Positions 17,969-41,588 of a stretch of 64,000 nt of DNA are shown one piece after another. Made by a program: the position numbers and the translations under genes. Within the stretch, counting starts at the first letter, position 1. Each line of letters starts with the position of its first letter. Source of the stretch: a virus (lineage: Duplodnaviria > Heunggongvirae > Uroviricota > Caudoviricetes); the IMG/VR virus record IMGVR_UViG_3300029705_000031. One strand, 5' to 3'. A model generated the notes under the pieces. The model was given only the letters and a program-made list of their open reading frames with translations, ran no database searches and was not told where the DNA came from.

Positions 17969-18014
17969 AGAATATATATTTAAAAGAAAAATTCAGATTT
18001 AAATATATATTCTA
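17968..18014. promoter_or_regulatory. Back-to-back early promoter cores in a perfect 17-bp inverted repeat
   Basis: TAGAATATATATTTAAA-13 nt-TTTAAATATATATTCTA between divergent genes. Confidence 0.6.
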
Positions 18015-19020: not shown

Positions 19021-19356
19021 ATGGAAGAAACTGTTTCTTTTAAGCAATTAATCCTAAATTTGGGATTAGGATTAAATGATGGGAGACCTATAGAAATATG
19101 TTTTCTTAACAATGAAAGTCGTTCAAAACATGTAGAAATTCTAAGAAATGTATATGATATTCATTGGTATTTTGAAATTTTTAAGATTTTAAATAAAAAT
19201 GAATCTAACACTTTATGGTTTAATTATAAAGCTATTAATGATGGCTATAACTGGACAGAAGATCGTTTATTTATATGTAAAGGTGGTCCTTTTCAATTAT
19301 CTCCTATAGAATATAAAGAAGTAGAATATGGAAAATTTCAGAAAGTAGATGATTAG
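19021..19356 (+). CDS. Array-1 paralog 1
   Basis: VSFKQLILNLGLG...YKEVEYGKFQK. Confidence 0.75.
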   Translation: MEETVSFKQLILNLGLGLNDGRPIEICFLNNESRSKHVEILRNVYDIHWYFEIFKILNKNESNTLWFNYKAINDGYNWTEDRLFICKGGPFQLSPIEYKEVEYGKFQKVDD

Positions 19357-19359
19357 AAT

Positions 19360-19683
19360 ATGGAAGAAAATAAACTAATTTCATTTAAAAAGATAATGTT
19401 TGAGTTACAATTTTCTGGTATAATTAAATCTCCAATACGTATAAGTTTCTTAAATGAAGAAGAATGTATTAAGTATAAAGATATTTTAAATGATGATTAT
19501 AATTGTAGATATCGTATAAATGCAAATAAAGAAAATGATAACAATTGGTATAGTATTCGTACTTTACCAAAATGTTTATGGATTTATAAAGGTGATTTCT
19601 ATAAACAACATTTAGGATATGCTAAAAGATATAGACAATTAGAAAATGATATTTTTATAAATACTAATTTTATATTGGAGTGA
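19360..19683 (+). CDS. Array-1 paralog 2
   Basis: ISFKKIMFELQFSG...YRQLENDIFIN. Confidence 0.75.
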   Translation: MEENKLISFKKIMFELQFSGIIKSPIRISFLNEEECIKYKDILNDDYNCRYRINANKENDNNWYSIRTLPKCLWIYKGDFYKQHLGYAKRYRQLENDIFINTNFILE

Positions 19684-19692
19684 TATTAGAAT

Positions 19693-19986
19693 ATGTATGG
19701 AGTAATCAAAGAACTTACTTTTAAACAATTGATGTTAGATCTTAGTTTGAATTTGATAAGCAATCCAATAACGATAAGAATGCAAAATAGTAATGAGATT
19801 GAAAGGTACATAAAAATTCTAGAAAACGATTACTCAATTCCAAAATTTATTACTATAGCAACTATAAGACAAGATAAATTCTATTATGTATACTTTAATG
19901 ATATAATTATCTATATAAGAAATGAGAATAATTATGGGAGTAGTTACGCTCAATTACCTAATGATACTTTCATTGAAATCTACTAA
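19693..19986 (+). CDS. Array-1 paralog 3
   Basis: LTFKQLMLDLSLN...YAQLPNDTFIE. Confidence 0.75.
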   Translation: MYGVIKELTFKQLMLDLSLNLISNPITIRMQNSNEIERYIKILENDYSIPKFITIATIRQDKFYYVYFNDIIIYIRNENNYGSSYAQLPNDTFIEIY

Positions 19987-20006
19987 TAAAAAAGAGGTAT
20001 TTAGTC

Positions 20007-20339
20007 ATGTCTAGAAAAAATAGAAAAATCTATACAATTGATAAACTAGTTTTTGATGTAGTAATTGGTAATAAGGATAAAGTTACTATTAAGTTTTTAA
20101 CTAATGAGTATTGTAAACATTGTGCAAGTACTTTAATAAGAGAAGGTAAATGTAATTGTATATCTGTAGGTAAGAAAAATATTAGAGACTCATTACAGAT
20201 ATACATACATGATAGAACTAATGAAACTATTATTAGTTGGTATGATGAAAATTGTTATAAGTATGTTGATTACATTCAGATTGGTTACAATCGATTTATT
20301 AAAAATAAATATAAATGGGGTGATCCTTTTGCCTATTAA
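20007..20339 (+). CDS. Array-1 paralog 4
   Basis: YTIDKLVFDVVIG...YIQIGYNRFIK. Confidence 0.75.
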   Translation: MSRKNRKIYTIDKLVFDVVIGNKDKVTIKFLTNEYCKHCASTLIREGKCNCISVGKKNIRDSLQIYIHDRTNETIISWYDENCYKYVDYIQIGYNRFIKNKYKWGDPFAY

Positions 20340-20658
20340 ATATTATACTATAGAACAGATAGTTTTTGATTTTTTATTAGGTGTTAATAAAAATAACAAA
20401 ATAAAAATCAAATGTATGTCTAACAAAAGTTGTAAAAAACTTAAACGTCTATTAGTTGAAAAATATGATTTTATAAACAAAAATTTTGAAATTTTCCCTA
20501 CAAATACATTATTAATAGCAAAATTTTTAAATATCTTTATAGTATCTAAATATAGTACTCGTCAACGTTATAATTTTGATTATTTTCAAATTGATGAAAA
20601 TTGCTTTATATCAGAATATGATTACTACATAAACTATTTAAGAAAAGGGGATCAATAA
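20329..20658 (+). CDS. Array-1 paralog 5 (TTG start inferred)
   Basis: GGGGTGA before TTG 20329; YTIEQIVFDFLLG...YFQIDENCFIS. Confidence 0.7.
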   Translation: MPIKYYTIEQIVFDFLLGVNKNNKIKIKCMSNKSCKKLKRLLVEKYDFINKNFEIFPTNTLLIAKFLNIFIVSKYSTRQRYNFDYFQIDENCFISEYDYYINYLRKGDQ

Positions 20659-20661
20659 TAC

Positions 20662-21048
20662 GTGTATGATTATAAAGCTAAACCATCGAAAAGATATACT
20701 TTTAAAGAAATAGTTTTCAAATTTATGATTAGTGATAAAAGTAATCTTATTATTCAATTTCCATGTACTCTTAGAGTCATTCAGTATTTTCAAGAAGCAA
20801 ACGCATTATATGGATTTAATGATGTATTAAAAATAGATTTTGTAACTAATGAATTATTATTTGATATAGCAAATAACATTTTTAATAATGAGATAGAACA
20901 ATTTCTTATTTTAAATAAAAATAGAAATTGTTTTATCTCAAACATTAAATATAGACTTGCTATAGATTATATATTTGATAAAGAAGATTCCTTTTATGAA
21001 CCAATAACTCATTTTCTTAATGGAGAAATTGCTAATGGAAACATTTAG
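20662..21048 (+). CDS. Array-1 paralog 6
   Basis: YTFKEIVFKFMIS...YIFDKEDSFYE. Confidence 0.75.
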   Translation: MYDYKAKPSKRYTFKEIVFKFMISDKSNLIIQFPCTLRVIQYFQEANALYGFNDVLKIDFVTNELLFDIANNIFNNEIEQFLILNKNRNCFISNIKYRLAIDYIFDKEDSFYEPITHFLNGEIANGNI

Positions 21049-21316
21049 TCTTAAAAGAATACTTTTTGATATACAATTATTGGATTATAAAGCCATAACT
21101 ATTAAGTGTCAATCTTATACTAACGCAATAAAAGTTGCAAATACTATAAGAAAAATCACAGAGTATACAGTTTTTTCTGAAGGTGTTGGATTTGACTGTT
21201 TAGTAGTTTACAAAGATGGTCCATTTAATGTATTTGATACAATTATACATCCACATGGAAAACCTACATATTTTCAATTAGAAGAAGATAGTTTTACAAA
21301 ACTTAATGACTTATAG
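21035..21316 (+). CDS. Array-1 paralog 7 (start METFS)
   Basis: FSLKRILFDIQLL...YFQLEEDSFTK. Confidence 0.75.
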   Translation: METFSLKRILFDIQLLDYKAITIKCQSYTNAIKVANTIRKITEYTVFSEGVGFDCLVVYKDGPFNVFDTIIHPHGKPTYFQLEEDSFTKLNDL

Positions 21317-21785
21317 AAAGAATAGGTTTTTAGTTATGGAAGAGAATACTTGTTCGTTTAGACAAATCATGTTTGAGATTCAATCAGGTATAGTTGAAGA
21401 AGCTGTTGTAAACTTTCCAACTATGAAAAAACTAGTAAAATTTACTGAATTAATAGAAGAAAACTATGGAATTATTGACATTGATAGTTGTAAGTATATG
21501 TCTTCTCCAGAGAAACTTTTTAAGTTACAAATTCTAGATAAAAAAAATAAAGCTAAATGTGATTACATGTTTTCAACTGGATTATTTAGTATTTTACTTA
21601 GTAAAGAAAATGGAATAATTACATGGCGTTATAGTGTATTATTTATGCCATTTATAACTAATTATAAGCAATTAGATAATGATCTATTTGAAAAACAAGA
21701 AAAATACACTATAGATGAATATAAGGAAAAACTAAATCAAAGAAGGAATTATAAACATGGAGGAAAAAGTTTACTTAACACTTAA
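21306..21785 (+). CDS. Array-1 paralog 8
   Basis: CSFRQIMFEIQSGI...YKQLDNDLFEK. Confidence 0.75.
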   Translation: MTYRKNRFLVMEENTCSFRQIMFEIQSGIVEEAVVNFPTMKKLVKFTELIEENYGIIDIDSCKYMSSPEKLFKLQILDKKNKAKCDYMFSTGLFSILLSKENGIITWRYSVLFMPFITNYKQLDNDLFEKQEKYTIDEYKEKLNQRRNYKHGGKSLLNT

Positions 21786-22248
21786 ACAGGTATTGTTTGA
21801 GTTTATGTTAAATGGTGATAAACCTATATTATTATTGATCTTTAAAGATTATAAACAAACTAAGAAACATATAGATCATTTATTTAAAGAATTTGATATA
21901 CGAAATAAGAATGATTTTTCCTGTTTTTATTCAGAAGATTTTATTAATATATTAGATGACTTTAATCCAAATTCAAAATCTGAATTTATGTTCAAGATGT
22001 TTGATTATATAGGTATAAAGTATCCAGACAACCAAGTTATAACATTAGTAAAAAAGAATACTAATGAACTATCAATGTATTATGTTGATAATAGTAGAGA
22101 TTTACCACGTTACAAGAACTATCATATTTATGTAGAAGAATTGGATAATGGTTTTATAGACTATAGTAATGAAGAAAGTTTGACAGTTATTAATGGATTA
22201 CTGTATGAAAAAGGAGTGAAAATAGATTTTACATGGAGTCTATCGTAA
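21757..22248 (+). CDS. Array-1 paralog 9
   Basis: LTLKQVLFEFMLNG...YVEELDNGFID. Confidence 0.75.
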   Translation: MEEKVYLTLKQVLFEFMLNGDKPILLLIFKDYKQTKKHIDHLFKEFDIRNKNDFSCFYSEDFINILDDFNPNSKSEFMFKMFDYIGIKYPDNQVITLVKKNTNELSMYYVDNSRDLPRYKNYHIYVEELDNGFIDYSNEESLTVINGLLYEKGVKIDFTWSLS

Positions 22249-22808
22249 TGGAAAAGTTTAAAACTGAAAATACTATGATTAGAAAACTTAAAGATGAAAA
22301 TGGTCATGACTATGTAAGCCTAACTATAGATGATCCTAATTTCAATGAAAAGGTCACATTAAAGAATATAGTATTTAATGCAACCTTTAGTAACTATAAC
22401 TACTATATAGTTTTTGATAAAGTACCAAGTAAAGAAGAAATTAGAAATTTTGTTAGTACATTTAAGAATGATTTTAATTTAGATATTGGATTTAATGTCC
22501 ATAATACGTTTGATAGTAGCAATGGTGCTAATAGACTAAACATGAAAGGTATATTCTCGATCTTTAATAGTGAAAGAGAATATAAAAAGACTGATACTGG
22601 TTATAAGTTTCTTATAAACGATAAAAGATACTTTACTTTAGTTCTGAGAATTGGTCGTGGAACTACTGAAACATTAAGTTGTAAGTTTACTCCGATGGTT
22701 AAATACAGCCATTATTCTTATTCAAAAACTGATTTCTATACTCAATTAAACTATAACTTGAATACATATGACAATGTAACTTTTATAGATTTCAAAAATA
22801 TCATATAG
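22233..22808 (+). CDS. Array-1 paralog 10 (N-terminal extension)
   Basis: NFNEKVTLKNIVFN..YIVFDKVPS...YTQLNYN. Confidence 0.7.
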   Translation: MESIVMEKFKTENTMIRKLKDENGHDYVSLTIDDPNFNEKVTLKNIVFNATFSNYNYYIVFDKVPSKEEIRNFVSTFKNDFNLDIGFNVHNTFDSSNGANRLNMKGIFSIFNSEREYKKTDTGYKFLINDKRYFTLVLRIGRGTTETLSCKFTPMVKYSHYSYSKTDFYTQLNYNLNTYDNVTFIDFKNII

Positions 22809-22820
22809 GAGATTTCTAAT

Positions 22821-23354
22821 ATGGAATTAAATACTATAAAAGATATAAAACTCTATACTTATAAGATAACAAATGAGAACTTTGGTGAAGAATTTCGTTT
22901 TAAAAAGTTTCTTTTCGATTTACAAATTGAAGATAGACAAAAACGTTTTTGCATAGTATTTGATGAAATACCTTCTTTAATAAAACTTATAAGATTTATC
23001 AATAGATTTAAAAAACATTATAAAGTAATTATTTGTAAAGAAGAGCCTTATAGTGAGTTTTCTAAAGATATCTTTAAACATCTATTACAATTTCAGAAAA
23101 AATTGATAGAAGAAAGAAAATTTAGAAAGATAGAAAAATTAGATGATTATAACTCTTATAAAGTTTTTATAAATGATAAAAGAGTTTATAATACTATGCT
23201 TTCATTTGCTATAAACTTACAAGATAGTAATGAAATTCTAATTGATATATGTAAAATTTGGAATGGACCAATTTCTAGTAGTTATGAAATATTTAGAAAC
23301 TACATTTCTAGATCTAATTCTTCAATTGTAAGATTTAGTGATATCCAATTCTAA
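22821..23354 (+). CDS. Array-1 paralog 11 (N-terminal extension)
   Basis: NFGEEFRFKKFLFDL..CIVFDEIPS; shares NDKR(Y/V) block with paralog 10. Confidence 0.7.
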   Translation: MELNTIKDIKLYTYKITNENFGEEFRFKKFLFDLQIEDRQKRFCIVFDEIPSLIKLIRFINRFKKHYKVIICKEEPYSEFSKDIFKHLLQFQKKLIEERKFRKIEKLDDYNSYKVFINDKRVYNTMLSFAINLQDSNEILIDICKIWNGPISSSYEIFRNYISRSNSSIVRFSDIQF

Positions 23355-24966: not shown

Positions 24967-25914
24967 ATGGCTACAAAGAAAACACAAAAGCAAAAAGAAT
25001 TCGATATGCTAATCAAATACGATGGTGATAAGAATGAGTTTACTAGTAAAGTTGATCTAAGCAATATAAAATTCATCAGAGAAAATCAAGATAAGATTAG
25101 TTGGTATGTACTATCTCAAAGAAAACTAACTAATGAGATTATTGAGGAGTTTTGGGATGAAATAAAGAGATATCTATCTTATGATAAAGAATTTTGGAAT
25201 TTTAAAATCGATATACTAAAAGCTATTAGAGAAGTTTTCCATTGGTATAGTTTTAATTTTCATAATGTAAATCCTTTAAGATTTTCATTAGATTTTTATA
25301 AGGAATTTGAAAGAGAATTAGATCCATATATTCAAAGTGTATCATGTGATAATCGACCTATTACTTTACTACCAGAGGAAACATTGGATTATCTTGTATT
25401 AGAAAAGAAAAATGAAAGAGTGATTAGTGTTCTTTCTAGTACTTCAAATATCAGTATTTACTATATCGAAAAATACAAAAATGTACTTGATTGGAGTAAA
25501 CTATCAACTTATTCAGTTGAATTATGCAAATCTAAGAACTTTAAGAAATATGAAGAGTATATTGACATTGCTAGTTTTGCTTCATTAAAAACCATAACTA
25601 ACGATTACTATACAAGTGGATCTTTTATTCTAAGCAAACTAAATATGGTATTAACTGAAGATTTTCTATTAAAATATAAAAACGCTATAGATTGGAAAGA
25701 AATAATCTACTGGGAAAGTTATAGAACTAATAGCAAAATAGAAAATAGCAAACTCAAAATAGTTTCTAGTGATTTCTTTAAAACACATAAAGATGAATTA
25801 CCTGAAGAGGCTATTATTGAAATTGAAAACTGCATTAAAAATTTTGGATATGATGAAGAAACACTGCATTATGGTGGACTTAGATATACATTACACTATA
25901 GATGGATTTTTTAA
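24967..25914 (+). CDS. Tryptophan-repeat family protein
   Basis: Repeats such as IRENQDKISW, IEKYKNVLDW, FLLKYKNAIDW. Confidence 0.75.
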   Translation: MATKKTQKQKEFDMLIKYDGDKNEFTSKVDLSNIKFIRENQDKISWYVLSQRKLTNEIIEEFWDEIKRYLSYDKEFWNFKIDILKAIREVFHWYSFNFHNVNPLRFSLDFYKEFERELDPYIQSVSCDNRPITLLPEETLDYLVLEKKNERVISVLSSTSNISIYYIEKYKNVLDWSKLSTYSVELCKSKNFKKYEEYIDIASFASLKTITNDYYTSGSFILSKLNMVLTEDFLLKYKNAIDWKEIIYWESYRTNSKIENSKLKIVSSDFFKTHKDELPEEAIIEIENCIKNFGYDEETLHYGGLRYTLHYRWIF

Positions 25915-25932: not shown

Positions 25933-26853
25933 ATGGCATCTAAAAAGAGAACAGCTAAACAAAAAGAATTTGATCTACTTCTAAAACATGCAGATAACAT
26001 TGATGAGTTTACAAAAAGAGTAAAAACAACAGATGTTGAAATCATTAGAAAATATAGAGATAAACTAAATTGGTGGAATATTGTTACTCGAAAGACCTTA
26101 ACTAATGAATTCATTGAGGAATTTTGGGAAGATATGGAATCACATATTGAAAAAGTTCGTGTTAATCCATATATGAATATGGAATTCCTAAAGACAAATA
26201 GAAACTATATAGATTGGCGATACTTTGTATATGATAGTAGTGGTTCTAGATTTACTGTAGATTTCATTGAAGGATTTAAGGAAGAATTAAGACCTTACTT
26301 TAGAATAATGATTTCAAAAACATATCTACCTAAAGAAAGTAGAGATTATCTTCTTAATGAAGAACAGAATAATCAAGATATGTATATGCAAATGTCTAAA
26401 AGCTATATTATTAAACCAGATGCTATTGAAAAATATAAAGATTTCTTAGATTGGGATTTATTATCTAAAAATGCTAGATGCTTACTTAATGACAAGTATT
26501 TTAAGATGTATCAAGATAGAATCAATCTATATGAATATACAAGTCTTAATATTCGTTATGGTGATTCCTATGAAGCATTTTTAAAGCGTGTTAAGAAAGT
26601 AGTAAACGAAGATTTTCTTCTAAAGTATAAGATTGCAAATCTGAATTGGCATGATATTATCCATTGTAATAGTCATAGATTAAATAGAGATATAAAAGAT
26701 GGTAATGTAACTCTACCTTTAGATTTCTTTAAGAAATATAAGGATCAGTTACCTTACGATGTACAAGTTTCCTATAAGAGATTTATAGAAAACTATAAGT
26801 TTGAACAATCTAAAACATATCCTTATTTCTATGGAATTCCTTGGGAATTCTAA
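25933..26853 (+). CDS. Tryptophan-repeat family protein (paralog of 24967)
   Basis: Shared N-terminus MA(T/S)KK.T.KQKEFD.L.K; IRKYRDKLNW, IEKYKDFLDW. Confidence 0.75.
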   Translation: MASKKRTAKQKEFDLLLKHADNIDEFTKRVKTTDVEIIRKYRDKLNWWNIVTRKTLTNEFIEEFWEDMESHIEKVRVNPYMNMEFLKTNRNYIDWRYFVYDSSGSRFTVDFIEGFKEELRPYFRIMISKTYLPKESRDYLLNEEQNNQDMYMQMSKSYIIKPDAIEKYKDFLDWDLLSKNARCLLNDKYFKMYQDRINLYEYTSLNIRYGDSYEAFLKRVKKVVNEDFLLKYKIANLNWHDIIHCNSHRLNRDIKDGNVTLPLDFFKKYKDQLPYDVQVSYKRFIENYKFEQSKTYPYFYGIPWEF

Positions 26854-27347: not shown

Positions 27348-27375
27348 AGTATAAAAATTTTTTTATCTATATATT
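27348..27375 (+). promoter_or_regulatory. Early promoter driving array 2
   Basis: TTTTATCTATATATTCT identical to 4419-4435; GTA upstream at 16-nt spacing. Confidence 0.6.
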
Positions 27376-27405
27376 CTTAAAGTAAGAATAGGAGGAATGA
27401 AACAT

Positions 27406-27762
27406 ATGACAAATAATGAAAGAATAGCTAAAAGATTTCAATTTGATTTAGAAATGGATATATTTAAAGATACAAGTTATATAAACTCAATAAGAACCTA
27501 TTACTTTAAGATTTCTAATAAAAAAGAAGTTGAATTAATGGATTTTGTTTTAGGTAAATTACTACACTTTGAAAATTTTTATGAAAAGCGTTATAAAGAT
27601 AAAGTATCATCAGAATCATTATTTGAAGATGGAAGAGAATATGTAGTTTTAAGTATTGTGATATTAGATAATGATAAAAAAATCTATAATTTTTCAAAAT
27701 ACACCGACGAGTACTTTAATGAATTACCAGATTACATAAAGGAAGTGGAGATAGAAGAATGA
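27406..27762 (+). CDS. Array-2 paralog 1
   Basis: MTNNERIAKRFQFDLEMDIFK...NELPDYIKE. Confidence 0.8.
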   Translation: MTNNERIAKRFQFDLEMDIFKDTSYINSIRTYYFKISNKKEVELMDFVLGKLLHFENFYEKRYKDKVSSESLFEDGREYVVLSIVILDNDKKIYNFSKYTDEYFNELPDYIKEVEIEE

Positions 27763-28106
27763 CAAATAATGAAAGAATAGCTAAAAGATTTCAATTTGAT
27801 TTAGAAATGGGTAGATTTAAAAGCTTCAGAAGAAATAACTATCAAAATCAAATCCTATTTAGTATTAATACTCAAGAAGATTATGATAAAGTAAACGATC
27901 TTATATGGCATAAGATGCGAGGTATTCTAATTGGTAATCAAAATAGTGAGTTTACTAAAAGTGAAAATCTAATTTGTTGTGTCAATATTGATATAAAATC
28001 TAATTTCTTTTACTTCTGTAACTTTTCAATAACTACTAATGATAAACATCGTTATCTTAATGAAATGCCAGATTACATAAAGGAATGGGAAATAAGAAAT
28101 GACTAA
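27759..28106 (+). CDS. Array-2 paralog 2
   Basis: First 52 nt identical to paralog 1; ...NEMPDYIKE. Confidence 0.8.
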   Translation: MTNNERIAKRFQFDLEMGRFKSFRRNNYQNQILFSINTQEDYDKVNDLIWHKMRGILIGNQNSEFTKSENLICCVNIDIKSNFFYFCNFSITTNDKHRYLNEMPDYIKEWEIRND

Positions 28107-28491
28107 AGAAATGATTGCTAAAAGATTCATGTTAGAATTAGAAATGGGATTATTTTATGAAGATAAAAAGGATAGATTGTTTATATTTTCTTTAGAAAAT
28201 AAACATCAAATGCAAATTTTAAATGAGATTTTAGAAGATGCTAAATATGAATATGAGTTTGAATATAAGTTTCCTAAACATTATCTATTTTCAAATAGTT
28301 TATTAGAAATAGATACAATATCTAAAAGTTATCATTTTGAAGTATTAAAATTTGTAATTGAATTGATGAAAAATAAATCAACTCATACAATAAATGAACT
28401 TCCTAGTTATATAAACGACTATAAACCAGAAGAAAGAGGAGAATTACCAATTTATATAGGAGAAGATGGTTATATAATAAGTGAGGAATAG
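28099..28491 (+). CDS. Array-2 paralog 3
   Basis: MTKEMIAKRFMLELEMGLF...NELPSYIND. Confidence 0.8.
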   Translation: MTKEMIAKRFMLELEMGLFYEDKKDRLFIFSLENKHQMQILNEILEDAKYEYEFEYKFPKHYLFSNSLLEIDTISKSYHFEVLKFVIELMKNKSTHTINELPSYINDYKPEERGELPIYIGEDGYIISEE

Positions 28492-28494
28492 ATT

Positions 28495-28839
28495 ATGACT
28501 AAAGAAGAAGTTATTAAAAGACTTAGATTTGACTTAGAAATTGGTGCTTTTAAATCAGCTTTTAATGATAATACATATTATTTTGATATATACAATCAAC
28601 CAACTAAATTGAATATATTTTTAGAATTATTAGCTTTAACAGGATTAAAATTTGATAACATAATGAATGTTGAAATTGTACAAGGTATTGTAGTAGATAT
28701 GGATGATAAAGATTTTGGTTATTGGGGTGATTCACTTAATTATGTATCTACTACACCTAGCTTTAGTAAACTCTTAAATGAAATTCCTAAATATGTTTAT
28801 GAATACTTAGACTCAAAAGGAGTAAACTATAATGACTAA
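28495..28839 (+). CDS. Array-2 paralog 4
   Basis: MTKEEVIKRLRFDLEIGAFK...NEIPKYVYE. Confidence 0.8.
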   Translation: MTKEEVIKRLRFDLEIGAFKSAFNDNTYYFDIYNQPTKLNIFLELLALTGLKFDNIMNVEIVQGIVVDMDDKDFGYWGDSLNYVSTTPSFSKLLNEIPKYVYEYLDSKGVNYND

Positions 28840-29143
28840 TGAAGAAATTTTAAAAAGATTTGAATTTGATTTAAGAATGGGTAGATTTAAATCAGTAAAC
28901 AATCTAAAAGTAAAAAATGTTTATGCTTTTAGATTAGCTAGGTTATCTGAATTTCTTTTACTATCTAAGATTTTAGATAAACTTGGTTTTACTAGTAATA
29001 ACTTTCAACCTATGCATACTAATAAAGGAATTTCTATAAAAGTAGATGATAAGATATATTGGACTTATCAAATCGATTTAAACGAAATTAATGATGACGA
29101 AAATAAACTACCAGAATATTGTAAAAGGTATAAATATGACTAA
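28832..29143 (+). CDS. Array-2 paralog 5
   Basis: MTNEEILKRFEFDLRMGRFK...NKLPEYCKR. Confidence 0.8.
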   Translation: MTNEEILKRFEFDLRMGRFKSVNNLKVKNVYAFRLARLSEFLLLSKILDKLGFTSNNFQPMHTNKGISIKVDDKIYWTYQIDLNEINDDENKLPEYCKRYKYD

Positions 29144-29468
29144 TGAAGAAATCATTAAAAGATTTACATTTGATCTAGAATTAGGAGTATTTGAAAGAAA
29201 GAATAGAAATAATTGCTGTATTTACTATTTTAATATACCTGATAAAAATGGACTTGATCTAATATCTAGTATTTTAGATGATATGAATTTTTACTATTAT
29301 GAATATTTCTATGATAATACAATTGAAAATAATGTAACACCAACTATACTTATTGTAAATCTAACAGTTAAAAACTACTATTTCAATAGTTACATCTACT
29401 ATAGTAAATATAACAAATTACCAGAGTATCTATATGATTATAAAGGAGTTAGAGAATTTAATGGATAA
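29136..29468 (+). CDS. Array-2 paralog 6 (start revised)
   Basis: MTNEEIIKRFTFDLELGVF...NKLPEYLYD. Confidence 0.8.
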   Translation: MTNEEIIKRFTFDLELGVFERKNRNNCCIYYFNIPDKNGLDLISSILDDMNFYYYEYFYDNTIENNVTPTILIVNLTVKNYYFNSYIYYSKYNKLPEYLYDYKGVREFNG

Positions 29469-29748
29469 CAAAGGTTTAATTCCTATTGCAACTAACATAT
29501 CCAGTTATGGTACTAATGACAGAAGAGAAGTAATCTTCAGTTGTCCTGTCTGTGATACATCTTTCAAATACTATCATCGTAAAGAAAAGTTTTGTCATAA
29601 TTGTGGACAAAAGATAAATTGGGATGATGTGGAGTATGATACTATAGTTGATCCAGTTTTGATTAAAGCATGTATGAATAATCTTAAAAAAGTAAATGAA
29701 ACACTTCATAAGATCAATGTACTTAATCATGGAAAGAGTGATGATTAG
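29461..29748 (+). CDS. Zinc-ribbon protein
   Basis: CPVC...FCHNCGQKINW; same family as 39271..39516. Confidence 0.7.
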   Translation: MDNKGLIPIATNISSYGTNDRREVIFSCPVCDTSFKYYHRKEKFCHNCGQKINWDDVEYDTIVDPVLIKACMNNLKKVNETLHKINVLNHGKSDD

Positions 29749-29751
29749 AAT

Positions 29752-30093
29752 ATGACAGATAATGAAAGAATTGCTAAAAGATTTGAATTTGATTTAACAA
29801 TGGGTTTGTTTAAACCAATTAATTCAAGATTGAATGCATTTAAATCAGTAGACACAAATGATGATACCTATATTTTTATTATACATGAAAAATCTGATTA
29901 TATCAGATTCTCTAAAGTACTAGAATCAATTGGATTTAAAGTACGACATATGTCTTTTAATTTTCCACTTACTAAAGGAATTACTATAAGTCTAAAGGAT
30001 AAAAATTTTTGGACTTTTCAACGCAGTTATAGAACTAATCCTTTTGTTAGTGAAAATAAGTTACCTGATTATATCAAGGAGTATAAACTATGA
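29752..30093 (+). CDS. Array-2 paralog 7
   Basis: MTDNERIAKRFEFDLTMGLFK...NKLPDYIKE. Confidence 0.8.
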   Translation: MTDNERIAKRFEFDLTMGLFKPINSRLNAFKSVDTNDDTYIFIIHEKSDYIRFSKVLESIGFKVRHMSFNFPLTKGITISLKDKNFWTFQRSYRTNPFVSENKLPDYIKEYKL

Positions 30094-30416
30094 CTAATGA
30101 AGAAATTCTAAAACGATTTAGCTTTGATTTAGAAATAGGGGCATTTAATTCATTTTCATATTTCAATGACTTTATGCTATTTGATCTAAGAAATACTGAA
30201 AAAGATACTGGTTTGAGATTATACAAAGTACTATGTAAATTAGGTTATAAACCCATTTCGTATGATCTAAATCTAAATTTCTTAGATAGTTACTGTTTTG
30301 TGTCTTTAAGTACAAAACAGAAGTGTTTTGAATTTGAGCATTACCAATCAATCTACATAGGACTTTATGCAAGTGCTAATCCAATTCCAAAATACGTTTT
30401 AGAATATATATTCTAA
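30090..30416 (+). CDS. Array-2 paralog 8
   Basis: MTNEEILKRFSFDLEIGAF...NPIPKYVLE. Confidence 0.8.
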   Translation: MTNEEILKRFSFDLEIGAFNSFSYFNDFMLFDLRNTEKDTGLRLYKVLCKLGYKPISYDLNLNFLDSYCFVSLSTKQKCFEFEHYQSIYIGLYASANPIPKYVLEYIF

Positions 30417-30457
30417 CTACAGTATTTTAAATAACATAAAGGAGAGTTTATTCAATC

Positions 30458-31420
30458 ATGGATAATGAAACTAGAGATCTACATTTTAGTATACAAGGAG
30501 AATTCATTACTAAAGTGGCTAAAGAATGGATGTTCATTGATCTTAAACCATATAAAGTAGTAGAAGATTTACTACTATCTTGTATGACTGGTACTGACCA
30601 TACACAAGCACAGTTAAAGATCAATGTTCAGAATATTCTATTAGGTAGAGCTGAACTAAGAGGAAGATCTGATAGTGACGATTATGGATTAGTAAATCTA
30701 GAAGATGAGAAAGATCTAAACGATAACAACATCTTTACTGCATTTGGAGACTTAGCACAAAAGTACAGAGAAGTAAAGAAAGAACTATCTGAAATTACTC
30801 ATAAATACGAAGATTTAGTAGAATGTTTGGAGAACTGGGAAGAAGATGAACTAGATACTAGTTATCTTGATGATACTTTATTAAAGAGAACTCTACTAAA
30901 GATTAAGCTAAAATACGATCCTTTTGATGAAGAAACTAACACACAATGGAATAAAACTTATTTCAACACTGGTAATTCTTTAGTAGACTCTTATATCAAA
31001 GCTACTAAGAATGATGTTAAGTATGGTTGGTTGGATCCAGAAGGTAAGTTCTATGAAGTAGAATTTGGTGAACATCAAGCTTGGCCTTACATCTGTATTT
31101 GTGATAAAGCTGAATCAAGAGATGGAACACTTAGAAGAAGGGTAAGAGATTCAGAAACTGTCGATTTATCTCATTACTATAATGAACTATTAGAATACTT
31201 TGAAAAAGAAAATCACAGACTTACTATTGATAGTGCTTGTGCTGATTTCCTAGTTCATAAGGGTTGGGTGTTACTACATAATCCTTCAATGGGTATTCCA
31301 GTACTAGATAATTATACTATCCAAGGTTTAACTAAAGCACAGAGAGAATTCATGTTTGATTACTATATGGCAATTGATGAAGAAAAGAAAGCAAATGAAC
31401 TATACAAAGATATTGACTAA
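30458..31420 (+). CDS. Hypothetical phage protein
   Basis: 320 aa; GWLDPEGKFY..GEH, GWVLLHNP, TKAQREF blocks. Confidence 0.75.
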   Translation: MDNETRDLHFSIQGEFITKVAKEWMFIDLKPYKVVEDLLLSCMTGTDHTQAQLKINVQNILLGRAELRGRSDSDDYGLVNLEDEKDLNDNNIFTAFGDLAQKYREVKKELSEITHKYEDLVECLENWEEDELDTSYLDDTLLKRTLLKIKLKYDPFDEETNTQWNKTYFNTGNSLVDSYIKATKNDVKYGWLDPEGKFYEVEFGEHQAWPYICICDKAESRDGTLRRRVRDSETVDLSHYYNELLEYFEKENHRLTIDSACADFLVHKGWVLLHNPSMGIPVLDNYTIQGLTKAQREFMFDYYMAIDEEKKANELYKDID

Positions 31421-31441
31421 AACTAACTGGAGATTTTAGTT

Positions 31442-31966
31442 ATGGATTTACTTAAAGATTTTTCATCTTATATGATTTCAGCAGTAGTATTTACTATTGT
31501 TATGAATTGGAAACATATTTTAGCTTACTTTCAAGTTAAAAAGAAGTGTAAAGAAAGCATTAAAAGATTTGAATTTGACTTAGGAGTAGGGTTATTCAAA
31601 CAAGTCAAAGTAAAAGATAATGAAATATACTTCTTTAAACTTGACATGGTTGGTAAAAATGGACTAAATAAAGAATTAGCATTATTTGTTAAAGTATTAA
31701 CCAAGTTAGGCTATACTATGTCTAAAGAATGTTGGTTTCATGGATGGAAACTTACATTTAATAATCTAGCACATATTAAAAGAGACTGTATTGGAATCAA
31801 TAAAACAACTAAAACATTTTGGATTTATGAATTAATGACAGATAAGATTACTTATTCTGATGTATATTCCATTGTAAATGCTGATGAAGATTTTATGATA
31901 TGCTATAATAAAAATGAGAATGAATTACCTGAATATTTCAGAATGAAAAAAAAAGGAGGTAATTAA
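31442..31966 (+). CDS. Array-2 paralog 9 with N-terminal membrane anchor
   Basis: Hydrophobic N-terminus, then IKRFEFDLGVGLFK...NELPEYF. Confidence 0.75.
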   Translation: MDLLKDFSSYMISAVVFTIVMNWKHILAYFQVKKKCKESIKRFEFDLGVGLFKQVKVKDNEIYFFKLDMVGKNGLNKELALFVKVLTKLGYTMSKECWFHGWKLTFNNLAHIKRDCIGINKTTKTFWIYELMTDKITYSDVYSIVNADEDFMICYNKNENELPEYFRMKKKGGN

Positions 31967-31968
31967 AA

Positions 31969-32343
31969 ATGATGAATGAAAAAGTTGAACAGCTAGCTAG
32001 AGACATTTACGACTGGGTTATTGAAAAAGAAATGTGGGATGACATCTGTATTTACTTTAATGGTAAAGCATGGGCATCATGGGATGATTGGAAAGATGTA
32101 AAAGGAAAGAAGATTGATAAAGATTTGTATGAATATAAGGATAAAGACCCTAAAAAGTATTTTGAATGGGTCGCAGATCCTCATATTCTTTCTATGTCTT
32201 TTGAAGGAACTTTGAATCATGTATTGAATGGATATCTTAGTTGTAGTGATACCTATGTAAATAGTTTTGAGAAGCTATTTAAGAAGTATGGTATGTATTA
32301 TGAAATGGGAGATAGTTGGAATCTAACAGTAGCTTTAGAGTAA
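31969..32343 (+). CDS. Hypothetical protein
   Basis: 124 aa; LSMSFEG.LNHVLN..YYEMGDSWN. Confidence 0.75.
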   Translation: MMNEKVEQLARDIYDWVIEKEMWDDICIYFNGKAWASWDDWKDVKGKKIDKDLYEYKDKDPKKYFEWVADPHILSMSFEGTLNHVLNGYLSCSDTYVNSFEKLFKKYGMYYEMGDSWNLTVALE

Positions 32344-32813
32344 TAAAGGTGATTCAATGAATAAGAAATTTGAATTTGATCTAGTAATGTCTGATCCTGG
32401 TGAAGCTTTATCTAGAATTATTAAAGAAGCAGGTTATACTCCTAGAGTGGTGGCAACTAACCCTAATGGAGATTGTACTATTATAACTGAAGAGATAGCT
32501 AAATCTAAAGGAGATGTTTTTGAATTTCTTCATAAAGTAAATAAAGTAGCTAATATTGATTTATTCGTTTATAGAATTATTGATACTGATGATAGGGAAT
32601 TTAACTATCGTACTACTGATAATAGATTTAGTGGATTAATCTATTTTGATGGAATAGTTGATAATGCTAGATTTATGTTAGAATACTCTAGCAAAGGTAT
32701 ATTATGGTAATAAAGGTGATTCAATGAATAAGAAATTTGAATTTGATCTAGTAATGTCTGATCCTGGTGAAGCTTTATCTAGAATTATTAAAGAAGCAGG
32801 TTATACTCCTAGA
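32340..32813 (+). repeat. Exact ~107-nt direct repeat (32340-32446 and 32707-32813) covering the RBS and first 30 codons of two genes
   Basis: GTAATAAAGGTGATTCAATGAATAAG...GGTTATACTCCTAGA occurs twice. Confidence 0.9.
32357..32710 (+). CDS. Array-2-related paralog A
   Basis: MNKKFEFDLVMSDPGEALSRIIKEAGYTPR. Confidence 0.75.
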   Translation: MNKKFEFDLVMSDPGEALSRIIKEAGYTPRVVATNPNGDCTIITEEIAKSKGDVFEFLHKVNKVANIDLFVYRIIDTDDREFNYRTTDNRFSGLIYFDGIVDNARFMLEYSSKGILW

Positions 32814-33113
32814 ATGATAGCGAATAGTCCTATTGATAAGAGTTGTGTTATTATAACTGAAGAAATAGCTAATTCTGAAGAAGATGTTTTTGAGTTTATA
32901 CGTAAAGTAAATGAAGTTGCTGATATAAATCTAGAAATATACGAAATTAAATACGAAGATGTAACTTATACAGATGGGTCTACTAGATATCGTACTTCTG
33001 ATGGAAAATTTCTTGGAATAGTTCATGTTGGTGGAACTGATGAATTAGGAAGAACTCCATCTGATGAAGATACTAGGTTTTTACTAAAATATTCTAGTAA
33101 TGTTTGCATTTAA
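32724..33113 (+). CDS. Array-2-related paralog B
   Basis: Identical first 30 aa to 32357, then divergent. Confidence 0.75.
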   Translation: MNKKFEFDLVMSDPGEALSRIIKEAGYTPRMIANSPIDKSCVIITEEIANSEEDVFEFIRKVNEVADINLEIYEIKYEDVTYTDGSTRYRTSDGKFLGIVHVGGTDELGRTPSDEDTRFLLKYSSNVCI

Positions 33114-37681: not shown

Positions 37682-38049
37682 CCATTTCTCTGAATAATTG
37701 CTCTCATATTTTCTCTTCCTACAGGATTCATAGTATGAAGTCTAATAAGATAATTACGACCAGTTTCTTCAAGCCAATCAAGAATCTTGATATAATCACC
37801 ACCATCAGAAGCATAATCTCCTGCATCATGGTCTAAATCAATAAGTTCAATATCAACATAGTTTGCTGTATTATAGCATCTATTTCTACCAGCATAATCT
37901 CTGTCTAAGAAACAATTATGACCTCTATCCATACATCTTTGAATACAATCTTCAGTAGATTGAATGAACTTAATAGTCTCATTTACAGATTTGCACCAAT
38001 GATATCCTTTAGGAGCAGGTCTTAAATCATCAACCCAAATCTTCTTCAT
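37663..38049 (-). CDS. Cyclic-phosphate-processing receiver-like domain protein (cREC)
   Basis: KIWVDDLRP, IDLDHDAG, DYIKILDWL, RLHTMNPVGRENM. Confidence 0.75.
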   Translation of the reverse strand: MKKIWVDDLRPAPKGYHWCKSVNETIKFIQSTEDCIQRCMDRGHNCFLDRDYAGRNRCYNTANYVDIELIDLDHDAGDYASDGGDYIKILDWLEETGRNYLIRLHTMNPVGRENMRAIIQRNGWREVL

Positions 38050-38290
38050 TATTTTCCTCCGAATTTCTCCTTTGAAAATCTTTAATTTCATTCACGATTT
38101 CTTTGTAAACATGATACTTATCTACATGTCCACAACACATAGCAATATCTTCAGAATTAAAAGAAGCAAAGTAACTACCTTTTCTATAAGGTGGAAAATT
38201 TTTATCTGGTGGTCTTTTATATTCCTTATCAATAACACCATGTTTATTGATAAATCTTCGCATTTGTTTTAACTTTTTGCCTCTGTTCAT
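38030..38290 (-). CDS. Hypothetical protein
   Basis: 86 aa, basic. Confidence 0.6.
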   Translation of the reverse strand: MNRGKKLKQMRRFINKHGVIDKEYKRPPDKNFPPYRKGSYFASFNSEDIAMCCGHVDKYHVYKEIVNEIKDFQRRNSEENNEEDLG

Positions 38291-38633
38291 ATATTTCTAT
38301 CCCTTATTCATAAATCCATCTTGCTAACAGCTTTCCATGAACACATTTGTTAAAGATATAGATTCTTCTCCATCTTCCAAATGCATCATTTTCAATAGAT
38401 ACTCTAAAAATCTTTCTAAAAAACTTTTTCATATGTATATTCTCCTTACATCTGTTCTTGTTGTTCCATTAACAAATCTTGAAAGAATTCATTTCTTTCT
38501 TTTTCACAAGGACGAATTTTACCTTCAGATTTACAGTTAGGATATCTTTCACTATCATCTTGCTTAAAGCAAGTACAATTTTCACAATGCAGGTACATAG
38601 AAATTTTTACCTTTCTTTAAAATCATTATTTTA

Positions 38634-38843
38634 TTAATCTTTGTATAAACACAAGCATCCATTAATTGTATCAGTAGGATAGTTTTTTCCATCAATAGTT
38701 ACATACTCTTTTACAATATTCTTTTTATAGCAAGGAATTGCCGTAAAGTCAAAAACTTCTTTATATTCTGTATCTACCATGCAATTAGTAGATAACTCTG
38801 TTCCGTCCTTATAAATGCAAGTAAATACAGCTTTCTTAATCAT
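38634..38843 (-). CDS. Hypothetical protein
   Basis: 69 aa, RBS GAGGT. Confidence 0.6.
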   Translation of the reverse strand: MIKKAVFTCIYKDGTELSTNCMVDTEYKEVFDFTAIPCYKKNIVKEYVTIDGKNYPTDTINGCLCLYKD

Positions 38844-39083
38844 AATACCTCCTATTAAAATTGCTCTTTTATATACTTAATCTTGTAATCCAAATTGTTC
38901 ATATAGCCTCCTCTGTACGTCTAACAAAGCTTCCCAATTTTCTTTATCCGTATAATACATAGCAAGTTGGATTGTTGTATCTATTTTACATTTGATTTCA
39001 CTTATATCATAAAATACATTTTTACTCATACTACACCTCATAAAATCATCATTTTATTCCTCTATATATTTCAACACCAGATT

Positions 39084-39269
39084 TTATGCATGGTATCCAG
39101 TCGTAATTTCAATGATTCCTTCCCATTGATTTACAACCCAACTAAATACATATTTCTCAAGTAAATACTTTGGAATGAAATTACTATTTGTAAACATTTC
39201 TCCATCAATCTTCCACTTGACACCAGTATTTTTATTGGATAAGATAAACTCTTTTACTTTTGCATTCAT
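39084..39269 (-). CDS. Hypothetical protein
   Basis: 61 aa, RBS GGAGG; resembles 40864..41058. Confidence 0.6.
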   Translation of the reverse strand: MNAKVKEFILSNKNTGVKWKIDGEMFTNSNFIPKYLLEKYVFSWVVNQWEGIIEITTGYHA

Positions 39270-39270
39270 G

Positions 39271-39516
39271 TTAAGTCCTCCAATCTAATTTTTGACCACA
39301 TTGACTACAATAGTGTTCAGATCTAAAGACAACCTTATCACAACAAGGACAACGATTGCTGTTGAATTTTTCACTTAGCTTAACTTTTTTGCCAATTTGT
39401 TTATTTGCAGCATATACTAAGATATCGATATCTTTAGTTGCAGGAATTTCATTCTCATATACCTTTTCTGAAATTGAAAGTACTGCTTTTTTATAATCGT
39501 CTTCTTTAATTCTCAT
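39271..39516 (-). CDS. Zinc-ribbon protein
   Basis: RCPCC...YCSQCGQKLDW. Confidence 0.7.
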   Translation of the reverse strand: MRIKEDDYKKAVLSISEKVYENEIPATKDIDILVYAANKQIGKKVKLSEKFNSNRCPCCDKVVFRSEHYCSQCGQKLDWRT

Positions 39517-39724
39517 GTTTTAATACCTCTTCCAACTCATAACCATAAACATTCCAACTAGCACCATCATCAAAAACTACATCTATATCATACAATTCTT
39601 CATAATCTTCATCTTCAATATCTGCAGTACATTTCATTCCATCATGTGAAAGAAGCATTTTATGGATTCTGCCATTCCATGCTTGTTTGGTTTTATCATA
39701 ATGAAAAATATATTCTTTCTTCAT
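39506..39724 (-). CDS. Hypothetical protein
   Basis: 72 aa, RBS GGTGG. Confidence 0.6.
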   Translation of the reverse strand: MKKEYIFHYDKTKQAWNGRIHKMLLSHDGMKCTADIEDEDYEELYDIDVVFDDGASWNVYGYELEEVLKHEN

Positions 39725-39748
39725 TAGTTATTACCACCTTTTAAAAGT

Positions 39749-39925
39749 TTAATACAAATCACTTGCATTATGTACTCTTCCTGATGTATCGTATACTTTA
39801 TATACAAATTCTCCACATTTAGTAGATATTTCGATATAATCAACAGTAATCAAGTTATTATTTTTCTTTTCTCTTAAATATCTTCCATGTTTATAGATCT
39901 CTACACTATATGTATAATATGTCAT
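39749..39925 (-). CDS. Hypothetical protein (start revised to MTYYT)
   Basis: RBS GGAGGT upstream. Confidence 0.55.
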   Translation of the reverse strand: MTYYTYSVEIYKHGRYLREKKNNNLITVDYIEISTKCGEFVYKVYDTSGRVHNASDLY

Positions 39926-39935
39926 ATAAACCTTT

Positions 39936-40145
39936 TTACCTCCATCCATGATTACCAGTAAATACTTCACCATCAAATAAAACTGTTTTATAAATTTTAG
40001 AAACACAAGTTTCACTATCAATAGAGTTAATCAGATTCCTAAGTTTTTTATTGGCTTCTTCTGCATCATGAGCTATTACGATAGCAACATCATCTCTATA
40101 ATAAGCTCCATCATCTACTTCAAATTTAATTTGATATAAAAGCAT
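39936..40145 (-). CDS. Hypothetical protein
   Basis: 69 aa, V.IAHDAEEA motif. Confidence 0.6.
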   Translation of the reverse strand: MLLYQIKFEVDDGAYYRDDVAIVIAHDAEEANKKLRNLINSIDSETCVSKIYKTVLFDGEVFTGNHGWR

Positions 40146-40180
40146 ATTTTATCTCCTATTAAAATCATTCTTTTATTTGC

Positions 40181-40387
40181 TTAAATCAACATAGCAACTT
40201 TTCTATCAAATCCGTTTGCCTTGAAAAGTTCCTTTTCCAAGTCTTGTACAACAAAGTTCTTCTTTAGTTCTCCTTGTCCAAAACTTTCATATACCAGGTT
40301 TAAGGCTTCTTTCTTATTCTGTGCCTTTACTATATAGACACAATCGTTTTCTCCGTACACCACATATAACTTATGTTCCATAAGCAA
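40181..40387 (-). CDS. Hypothetical protein
   Basis: 68 aa, YIVKAQNKKEA motif. Confidence 0.6.
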   Translation of the reverse strand: MLMEHKLYVVYGENDCVYIVKAQNKKEALNLVYESFGQGELKKNFVVQDLEKELFKANGFDRKVAMLI

Positions 40388-40408
40388 TTACCTCTTAAAA
40401 TCGTCATT

Positions 40409-40657
40409 TTATTCCCATACAAAATTTCTATATCTTTCAACATCCTTATTAAGATCTTTAACTGTTTCATCGTAATAACCCAATATCTTTTTTAATAGTT
40501 CATTTTCTTCTTTACTTTTAGGAATACCAATTTTATTAATGTGATATACACACCACTTCAAAGTATATAGGTTAAGTTTCATAAGTTTTTTATGAGTAAA
40601 TCTAAGTTTGAGTATAGCAAGCTTAAACTTTAAAAAATCCATTTTTTCTTTTAACAT
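40409..40657 (-). CDS. Hypothetical protein
   Basis: 82 aa, RBS GGAG. Confidence 0.6.
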   Translation of the reverse strand: MLKEKMDFLKFKLAILKLRFTHKKLMKLNLYTLKWCVYHINKIGIPKSKEENELLKKILGYYDETVKDLNKDVERYRNFVWE

Positions 40658-40863
40658 TGTTATGTCTCCTTATATATCATCTACTATCGTGCTTATTCTG
40701 TATACAATGTATAGAATCCAGCAATATGATTGGTTTTATAAAATCTTCCTAAACTATCACATAGAATGAACTGAATGTCACCTTGTTCATCAATAAATGT
40801 TCCATAAGCGTCATAGATATTTCCACTTACATCTATTACCTTGAACATATGTTAATCCTCCTG

Positions 40864-41058
40864 TTATACAGCAATAGTAATTGCATTATTTACAGAGTTA
40901 ATTCTAATGACTTCACAATCCATATACATTTCAATATTTTCCTTCCAATATTCCTTAGTAGTTTCTGCCATCTTTCCATAAAAAGCAGTAATACAACCTA
41001 CATAGATGACGATATTAGTTCCACCAGAAATAACTGCTAATACATCCTTTAAAGTCAT
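40864..41058 (-). CDS. Hypothetical protein
   Basis: 64 aa MTLKDVL.. Confidence 0.6.
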   Translation of the reverse strand: MTLKDVLAVISGGTNIVIYVGCITAFYGKMAETTKEYWKENIEMYMDCEVIRINSVNNAITIAV

Positions 41059-41114
41059 TGTTTTTTATACCTCTTTCTTAAAAAATAGTTAGAATGAAGA
41101 CTTATAAAAAGTCT

Positions 41115-41291
41115 TCATTCATCCTTTACTTCTTCAATAGAACGAAGGATAGGCATATCCCATCCATATTCCTTAATAACCTTTTCTTTTGCAAAGATCT
41201 TTGCTTTTCTTTCAGTATTTGCTTTTACTTCAACAGTTACTTCATTATTAGCACTCCAAAAGATTTCAAATCTTGCTTTCCATTTTTTCAT
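41115..41291 (-). CDS. Hypothetical protein (start revised to MKKWK)
   Basis: RBS GGAG; VEVKANTERKA motif. Confidence 0.55.
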   Translation of the reverse strand: MKKWKARFEIFWSANNEVTVEVKANTERKAKIFAKEKVIKEYGWDMPILRSIEEVKDE

Positions 41292-41295
41292 ATAT

Positions 41296-41577: not shown

Positions 41578-41588
41578 ATTTTACTCCT

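Follow-up and report, generated by a model that had tools for sequence, protein, structure and literature searches.

A fast-changing family of small single-domain proteins, arrayed in tandem behind early-type promoter motifs in an uncultured AR9-like jumbo phage

The array and its source phage

The DNA considered here (the window) is a stretch of 64,000 nucleotides (nt) from the virus record IMGVR_UViG_3300029705_000031, a member of the Caudoviricetes, and corresponds to bases 42583-106582 of a 319,626-bp genome that is rated complete and has a guanine-plus-cytosine (GC) content of ~27%. Between positions 27406 and 31966 of the window lie nine genes of one family of small proteins, 103-174 amino acids (aa) in length (most ~105-130 aa), and this tandem array and its relatives elsewhere in the genome and in related phages are the subject of this work. 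The source is an uncultured AR9-like jumbo phage of animal gut or faeces. Its genome contains split multisubunit RNA polymerase genes, a large virion protein is ~30% identical to its counterparts in Bacillus phages AR9 and PBS1 and in Staphylococcus jumbo phages, and ten faecal metagenome runs, all from animals, contain the window stretch.

All genes of the locus are encoded on the plus strand, in the order of six family members, a zinc-ribbon gene, two members, a 320-aa gene, one member, a 124-aa gene, and a pair of more distant genes. The opening run consists of member 1 (27406..27762, 118 aa), member 2 (27759..28106, 115 aa), member 3 (28099..28491, 130 aa, with a C-terminal extension), member 4 (28495..28839, 114 aa), member 5 (28832..29143, 103 aa), and member 6 (29136..29468, 110 aa counted from its MTNEE start). 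The first of three non-family genes within the array encodes the zinc-ribbon protein (29461..29748); its open reading frame (ORF) is open from 29434, and a start at 29461 would give the usual 8-nt overlap. Weak Pfam zinc-ribbon matches and phrog_10714 were obtained for this protein. Member 7 (29752..30093, 113 aa) and member 8 (30090..30416, 108 aa) close the first block, and the 320-aa gene (30458..31420; phrog_31560, of unknown function) separates them from member 9 (31442..31966, 174 aa), which bears an N-terminal hydrophobic segment followed by KKK. The third non-family gene, of 124 aa (31969..32343; phrog_35453), precedes the pair, which shares the motif NKKFEFDL and comprises copy 1 (32357..32710, 117 aa) and copy 2 (32724..33113, 129 aa). 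Ahead of the array stand two paralogous genes of ~310 aa (24967-25914 and 25933-26853; weak matches to phrog_3532) that are 42-47% identical to their counterparts in the related phage fragment introduced below.

A preliminary description of this DNA had listed eleven ORFs here, nine paralogs and two further genes, and all of them were recovered where it had placed them. It had also reported shared motifs at both protein ends and coupled genes, and the alignments and junction lengths agree. An N-terminal motif, MTNEEIxKRFxFDLEMGxF, is common to the nine members, and a C-terminal motif, NxIPDYIxEY or N(E/K)(I/L)PxYIxEY, lies near their end; K9, R10, L15, F20, F34, N105, P108, and Y110 (first-member numbering) are invariant across all nine. 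Successive junctions measure -4, -8, +3, -8, -8, +3, and -4 nt, so that stop and start codons overlap in most, and an 8-nt overlap, AATGACTAA, recurs in which the Asn-Asp-stop of the upstream gene also supplies the Met-Thr start of the downstream gene. Finally, the first 52 nt of member 2 are exactly identical to those of member 1 from the ATG onward, as had been noticed earlier.

One predicted domain with conserved ends and variable loops

The preliminary description saw unrelated-looking cores between the two motifs, a view that the conservation pattern does not bear out. An alignment of 113 rows was assembled from the eight non-anchored members and 105 homologues, and in it the hydrophobic positions I6, F10, F12, L14, M16, F19, F33, L44, I47, L48, L51, Y53, I67, I69, Y76, I93, I97, and Y100 are conserved, a skeleton kept throughout the length of the protein. 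Conserved polar and other positions include K8 (98%), R9, D13 (93%), G17, G52, K74 (83%), N91 (89%), P94 (100%), and Y96 (100%), while most of the variation falls within three loops (21-29, 54-66, and 80-90). Because F33, L44, L48, G52, Y53, I67, I69, K74, and Y76 are all conserved between the terminal motifs, the members are best regarded as carrying one domain with three variable loops.

A confident fold model points the same way. AlphaFold2, given member 5 and the 113-row alignment, produced a compact alpha/beta domain with a predicted local distance difference test (pLDDT) score of 89.9 and a predicted template modelling score of 0.82, in which helices (H) and strands (E) follow in the order H3-15, E30-34, H38-50, E66-70, E75-79, and H95-99. 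The N- and C-motifs are both modelled as integral helices, and residues 1-20 have a pLDDT of ~97; the N-motif is therefore most simply read, on the model, as an amphipathic helix that holds the fold rather than as a free signal. Apart from the loops, the members vary in surface residues and in net charge, and their predicted isoelectric points (pI) range from 4.6 to 9.2 (median 6.1).

Expression signals

Early promoters of phage AR9 are read by the injected virion RNA polymerase and have an experimentally defined consensus, AAATATATATTAT-N6-G; replacement of one letter, A by C at position three, is associated with promoter inactivity (PMC5312081). When A or C was allowed at position 12, the genome of the present phage yielded 37 matches with at most one mismatch to this consensus, and 32 of them have the start of a same-strand ORF within 200 nt downstream, mostly at 40-70 nt. 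The form taken by the motif in this phage is AAATATATATT(A/C)T, often then TAGTAA. Within the window, such motifs occur at 17981(-), 18001(+), 24908(+), 30402(+), 30413(-), 43909(-), 52764(-), 55314(-), and 60501(-). Two of the sites, near ~17990 and ~30408, consist of back-to-back or palindromic motifs from which transcription may start in both directions.

The array itself is preceded by ATCTATATATTCT (27365..27377, plus strand), an early-type motif located 29 nt upstream of member 1 that resembles the AR9 consensus and has two mismatches to the phage's own; the corresponding motif of the second array described below belongs to the one-mismatch set. Upstream of the syntenic array in the related phage fragment, TTATCTATATATTCTT is retained although the flanks differ. 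A single early promoter had been proposed for the whole array, and an early-type motif does precede the first block, but a second one, GAATATATATTCT (30402..30414, plus strand; palindromic with a minus-strand copy), precedes the 320-aa gene and member 9. Because of this second motif, the block 27406-30416 is probably one early operon and member 9 probably belongs to the next. No AACA-N6-TA late motif is present in the 68-nt spacer upstream of the array, and no enrichment of sigma-70-like sites was detected. The first block contains one weak hairpin only (30293-30320), and scans for tRNAs and Rfam families returned no match.

Translation signals appear to be embedded in the gene ends. In the K-E-Y tail, the rare codon AAG accounts for 42% of lysine codons against 21% elsewhere (Fisher p 0.006), and GAG, also rare, for 42% of glutamate codons against 14% elsewhere (Fisher p 0.0003). 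Where a gene ends 9-12 codons past the invariant proline, the resulting AAGGAG provides the following gene with its Shine-Dalgarno sequence. Since it serves both purposes, part of the DNA conservation at the 3' end reflects translational coupling.

Searches for known relatives

The family is far larger than chance would allow on the profile evidence. A profile built from the nine members gave 18 matches in the phage's own genome (E 1e-6 to 3e-35) and 192 clusters at E<=1e-3 in a search of 1.84 billion representative proteins, and every cluster with a recorded source consists of unnamed metagenome proteins (JGI, ENA, or Logan). Among 5.8 billion proteins, the top non-self identity to member 5 was 42%. 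On the other hand, nothing named was recovered. PHROG matched none of ten window proteins tested, which were the nine members plus a single copy of the pair, the most that any Pfam family matched was one of the 113 aligned proteins, a PADLOC scan of the members gave only noise at E>0.01, and no relative was found in 50,697 GenBank phage records by megablast of the locus and tblastn of one member.

Searches with the family model gave a similar outcome, with nothing above background in PDB by Foldseek, BFVD, AFDB clusters, VIA-align in wide mode, or ESM Atlas by shape. The highest scores were a Z of 3.3, a template modelling (TM) score of 0.58 over a part of the fold, and a best Foldseek E of 0.63 against PDB; a search of ESM Atlas by features gave scores of ~0.8, which is the level of chance. 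The Z of 3.3 comes from a superposition on RemA (root-mean-square deviation 3.9 A, 62 residues aligned), while WhiA and R3H reached 2.4-2.9, all within the range of noise. Two candidates were considered and rejected: a SUKH-type immunity protein, with its LPxxY-like motif, has no Pfam match here and the position differs, and a RelE-like toxin was ruled out at a TM of 0.22. Across the databases searched, then, the family is confined to uncultured gut phages, and its fold is without a solved match.

Copy number and turnover

The array in the window is not the only one. The phage's own genome (G000) holds 19 copies in total: nine in the window, nine in a second array (G000:C1:26106-29335, plus strand), and one lone divergent member (G000:C1:252679-252999, plus strand; E 1e-6 to 5e-8) behind a ACTATATATCAT-type motif. 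The second array lies ~13 kb before the start of the window, directly upstream of the gene for a family-B DNA polymerase and behind AAATATATATAAT. An 85.8-kb fragment of a relative (G001), with a completeness rating of 33%, contains 33 copies, divided between two arrays. The polymerase-side arrangement is seen again in G001 and once more in a third, 299-kb phage, where ~14 small genes stand in a row upstream of the DNA polymerase gene, and one further contig consists of 17 consecutive small genes of family size, end to end. In G000 and G001 alike, the early motif is conserved ahead of each of the two arrays, as it is ahead of the polymerase-side one in the third phage. If jumbo-phage arrays are taken as at least ten tandem same-strand paralogs of one small protein in a genome of more than 200 kb, the present family is of this kind, with its 19 copies in 319.6 kb (arrays of nine and nine and the lone copy). 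The family occupies ~2% of one genome and considerably more of G001.

The preliminary description had asked whether the array is fixed across related phages, and G001, which is syntenic with the locus, allows a comparison. There, thirteen members are followed by the zinc-ribbon gene, the 320-aa gene, four members, the 124-aa gene, one member, and a single homologue of the pair, and so the members differ in number (18 against 9) and in placement among conserved anchors. Those anchors and the wider backbone remain readily alignable: identity to G001 is 84-89% for the RNA polymerase pieces, 88% for the DNA polymerase, 71% for a 774-aa protein with a VWA domain, 66% for the 124-aa protein, 53% for the zinc-ribbon protein (found at the same place), and 47% for the 320-aa protein. 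By comparison, when members are matched across the two phages, the best identities are only 26-38%. The tree of the members is star-like, with terminal branches of ~1 change per site and no supported one-to-one orthologues, and a member tends to group with those of the array that occupies the equivalent position in the other phage. The array is not fixed across related phages, given nine against 18 members and at most 38% identity. This comparison of assembled genomes shows that copy number and content change much faster than the neighbouring genes (26-38% against 47-89% identity, with unequal copy number).

Recombination at the conserved gene ends

It had been suggested at the outset that conserved DNA ends could allow duplication, loss, and swapping of these genes, and strain-level comparison lends weight to that idea. 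Contigs of four other faecal runs, including two designated X4 and X7, were placed on the locus. In the X4 contig, a joint from 32339 to 32707 skips 367 nt, exactly gene 32357, with 107 letters that fit both sides; in the X7 contig, a joint from 27405 to 27759 skips 353 nt, exactly gene 27406 (member 1), with 52 letters that fit both sides. Each joint has 255-nt sides and no other intervening letter, and the X7 contig is free of mismatches. Read depth in X4 is zero across 32425-32641, the interior of gene 32357, and this deletion is a real strain difference; the X7 deletion may be a strain difference too. Further contig joints had short sides of 21-50 nt or undefined intervening letters; they were attributed to other strains or to paralog 5' ends matching one another and were not counted.

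The repeats at these joints are unusual in themselves. Among 1275 paralog pairs, 27406/27759 has the highest identity across the 5' motif window, 96% (median 67%, 95th percentile 80%), and since the 52-nt identity is such an outlier, gene conversion or recent exchange is required to account for it. Similarly, a 5' stretch of 134 nt is 93% identical between 32357 and 32724, with identity of at most 82% further downstream. Taken with the unequal numbers of members in the two phages, the joints show in part that genes are gained and lost when neighbouring copies undergo homologous recombination through their near-identical 5' ends.

A bolder version of this idea would treat the gene ends, the 5' end and partly the 3' end, as built-in homology arms, such that unequal crossing-over and gene conversion inside one genome, and exchange with relatives during co-infection, swap variable cores within a fixed slot that is transcribed early and translationally coupled. 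This remains a tentative proposal, and one more likely to fail than to hold. If true, a phage population would collectively possess a large pool of early effectors, comparable to the 'genomic accordions' of viruses and to antigen-cassette systems.

Member 9, the distant pair, and neighbouring blocks of small genes

Member 9 (31442) had been described as having gained a membrane anchor. Its hydrophobic N-segment is borderline (Kyte-Doolittle 1.51), but those of the homologues P0061 and P0129 are clear (1.86 and 2.88). Subsets of the family carry either an N-terminal hydrophobic segment or conserved C-terminal amphipathic tails of the LWLMKKLKRDSYLI or PVLDAIKETI...KRK type; homologues with one or the other are P0030, P0042, P0075, P0098, and P0108; P0090, P0114, P0119, P0120, and P0128; and L004:4470-6342. 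Because the G001 members at the position of 31442 bear tails in place of an anchor, the predicted features suggest a membrane-associated subgroup within the family.

The pair 32357/32724 had been regarded as derived members, and a limited relationship is all that could be recovered. The two proteins are 60% identical to one another, copy 2 is 42% identical to the single G001 homologue, and all three retain NKKFEFDL and a helix of the form L..I...AGY. Aligned to the family with hhalign, the pair gives a probability of 53% and an E of 1.3e-4 over 29 columns, those of the N-helix motif and of helix 2, and the alignment skips the first strand. The rest of the domain is not matched; an alignment over the full length, which would take in strand 1 and also the NxIPDY C-motif, was not obtained. 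Its own model (pLDDT 82.5) follows the order H-E-E-H-E-E-E-H-E, which differs from that of the family, and the motif is unstructured. A fold search with this model recovered generic alpha+beta sheet neighbours only (Z 5-7, the usual background), and a word-indexed search for homologues returned only the window's own two proteins. The pair and the family may nevertheless share their 5' part by descent or by recombination.

Two further blocks of small genes occur in the window. Array 1 (19021-23354) consists of eleven tandem paralogs with an N-motif of the FKQIxFxL type; membership of the same superfamily was considered but is unsupported, since hhalign aligned 36 columns at a probability of 2.7% and an E of 0.017. 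On the minus strand at 38030-41834 are ~15 very small ORFs (46-101 aa) with a strongly negative GC skew (-0.37); the tRNA and Rfam scans gave no match here, and the run may be a further block of tiny genes.

Possible functions of the family

The most attractive explanation is that this lineage-specific multigene family of small single-domain proteins, carried by a clade of uncultured AR9-like jumbo phages of animal guts, constitutes a repertoire of host-directed binders or inhibitors, to which a probability of roughly one half may be given. The members would be made in the first minutes of infection, as their early-type motifs imply, and would bind or inhibit host proteins, either for takeover or for counter-defence, with each variable surface suited to a different or fast-changing target. 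The termini would be conserved mainly to hold the fold, the 3' end also encoding the ribosome-binding site of the next gene. Such a repertoire fits best because it brings together a rigid scaffold, loops and charge that vary, early-type signals, and a tendency of members to be replaced instead of drifting slowly; moreover, the spread in pI, from acidic to basic, would be expected of binders with different targets. Copy gain, loss, and replacement far outpace change in the rest of the genome, and the family is therefore probably a changeable toolkit aimed at the host.

Several observations weigh against this explanation or its supports. Conservation of the polar positions (K8 at 98%, D13 at 93%, N91 at 89%), and of P94 and Y96 at 100%, exceeds what the fold needs and hints at a common site. 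The packing of the N- and C-motifs against each other is deduced from hydrophobicity. The array promoter has two mismatches, one of which falls where the A-to-C change in AR9 goes with inactivity. Finally, the X7 joint could reflect collapse of the 52-nt repeat by an assembler working at k=31, since X7 keeps some depth over gene 27406, and zero coverage backs the X4 deletion only.

The hint of a common site leads to the strongest of the alternatives, which is that the proteins are modular adaptors. A polar patch (K8, R9, D13, K74, N91, D95, and Y96) would dock one common partner, conceivably a phage or host machine such as an RNA polymerase, a protease, or the membrane, and the variable face would bring clients to it. 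A shared adaptor site of this kind retains perhaps a modest chance because K8, R9, D13, K74, and N91 are conserved, with the polar residues kept at 83-100% despite ~30% pairwise identity. The zinc-ribbon, 320-aa, and 124-aa genes are retained inside the array in two phages and could supply the partner, and the membrane-type extensions in family subsets would also suit an adaptor. The conserved positions are mostly hydrophobic, however, which fits a buried core, and the adaptor reading is considered distinctly less probable than a set of host-directed binders.

It is less plausible again that the members are small regulators that bind nucleic acids, such as transcription or translation factors dedicated to single genes and working with the phage's own polymerases. 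The weak top structural neighbours named above are nucleic-acid binders, the basic residues K8, R9, K20, and K74 are conserved, and a precedent exists in what has been proposed for the ~35-copy zinc-ribbon expansion of phage G (PMC7824862). Yet the Z scores of those neighbours are all in the noise range, the median pI of 6.1 leaves many members acidic, and the proteins are without a helix-turn-helix or zinc motif.

The preliminary description had also raised the possibility of a targeting signal for the capsid or a phage compartment. On this reading, the N-motif would direct diverse cargo proteins there, in the manner of the T4 capsid targeting sequence. There is a resemblance in architecture, since a constant N-terminus is likewise joined to a varied body, but the details make this very improbable. 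Both motifs are mostly hydrophobic (I6, F10, F12, L14, M16, and F19; I93, P94, Y96, I97, and Y100). The T4 signal is an N-terminal peptide of ~10 aa that ends in an L/I-x-E site for the prohead protease and is cleaved on maturation, whereas the N-motif is a largely hydrophobic, 13-residue helix that is modelled as continuous with the domain at pLDDT ~97. It offers no (L/I)xE cleavage context, since FDLE places Asp at P3 and E15 is conserved in 61% only. In addition, there is a second conserved motif at the C-terminus, the DNA of which is partly Shine-Dalgarno sequence, and the promoters here are of early type, whereas AR9 virion genes are transcribed from late ones (PMC5312081). Equally improbable are neutral or selfish duplicates that fill spare capsid capacity, since, for all that tandem duplication has been proposed by Hua et al. 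as a route of jumbo genome growth (PMC5646251), every scored match in the phage's own genome has an uninterrupted frame, fold-defining residues are kept in all copies, ribosome-binding sites and stop/start coupling are maintained, and the array positions are kept in at least three phages.

Jumbo phages devote much of their coding capacity to genes of unknown function, and turnover against a stable backbone, together with deletions exactly at gene ends, marks a likely front line of the conflict between phage and host. The family provides a defined group of proteins in which new activities, in takeover of the host or against its defences, can be sought by screening, as well as a natural case in which to study how phage gene repertoires are expanded and edited.

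Comparison with known systems

The large DNA viruses of eukaryotes offer a parallel. The multigene families MGF110, MGF360, and MGF505 of African swine fever virus and the ankyrin/PRANC families of poxviruses form arrays in variable regions, change in copy number among strains, and have a role in host interaction. The likeness is an analogy only, as there is no relationship in sequence or fold to the phage family, and the hosts here are bacterial.

Closer to the present case, phages G and 121Q were reported to carry more than 30 similar genes arrayed in tandem (Hua et al. 2017, PMC5646251), and phage G its ~35-copy expansion of zinc ribbons (PMC7824862). The 'undescribed system' of the preliminary description consequently needs to be divided: the family is previously undescribed and has no known match, while tandem paralog arrays in jumbo phages are already on record. 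Like the array described here, those of 121Q/RaK2 and phage G contain dozens of head-to-tail small paralogs that have been read as tandem duplications of unknown function. Unlike them, the present family occurs in an AR9-like, low-GC lineage of the animal gut, with a different host clade and a different set of motifs, and it is distinguished by its division into two separate arrays, by termini that are sharply conserved, and by deletion variants, observed at the population level, that fall at these ends.

Phage T4 and its relatives provide the other close comparison. The internal proteins of T4 are diverse anti-restriction proteins with only a targeting sequence in common (PMC3012670), and in the hyperplastic regions of T4-type phages short conserved elements (PeSL cassettes) that flank small early genes recombine (Arbiol et al. 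2010, PMC2839356). As in the array, short conserved sequences beside diverse small genes act as recombination substrates, and the products in T4-type phages are diverse and host-directed, a likeness that would extend to the present family if its proposed host role is correct. The differences are nonetheless informative. The conserved peptide of the array proteins is part of the predicted fold rather than a cleaved signal, and it is associated with early-type expression signals. Moreover, where the T4-type cassettes consist of promoters and terminators, the conserved DNA here is the coding 5' end of the genes; what is particular to this family is that this coding end is itself the recombination substrate, with natural deletion variants that fall exactly on it.

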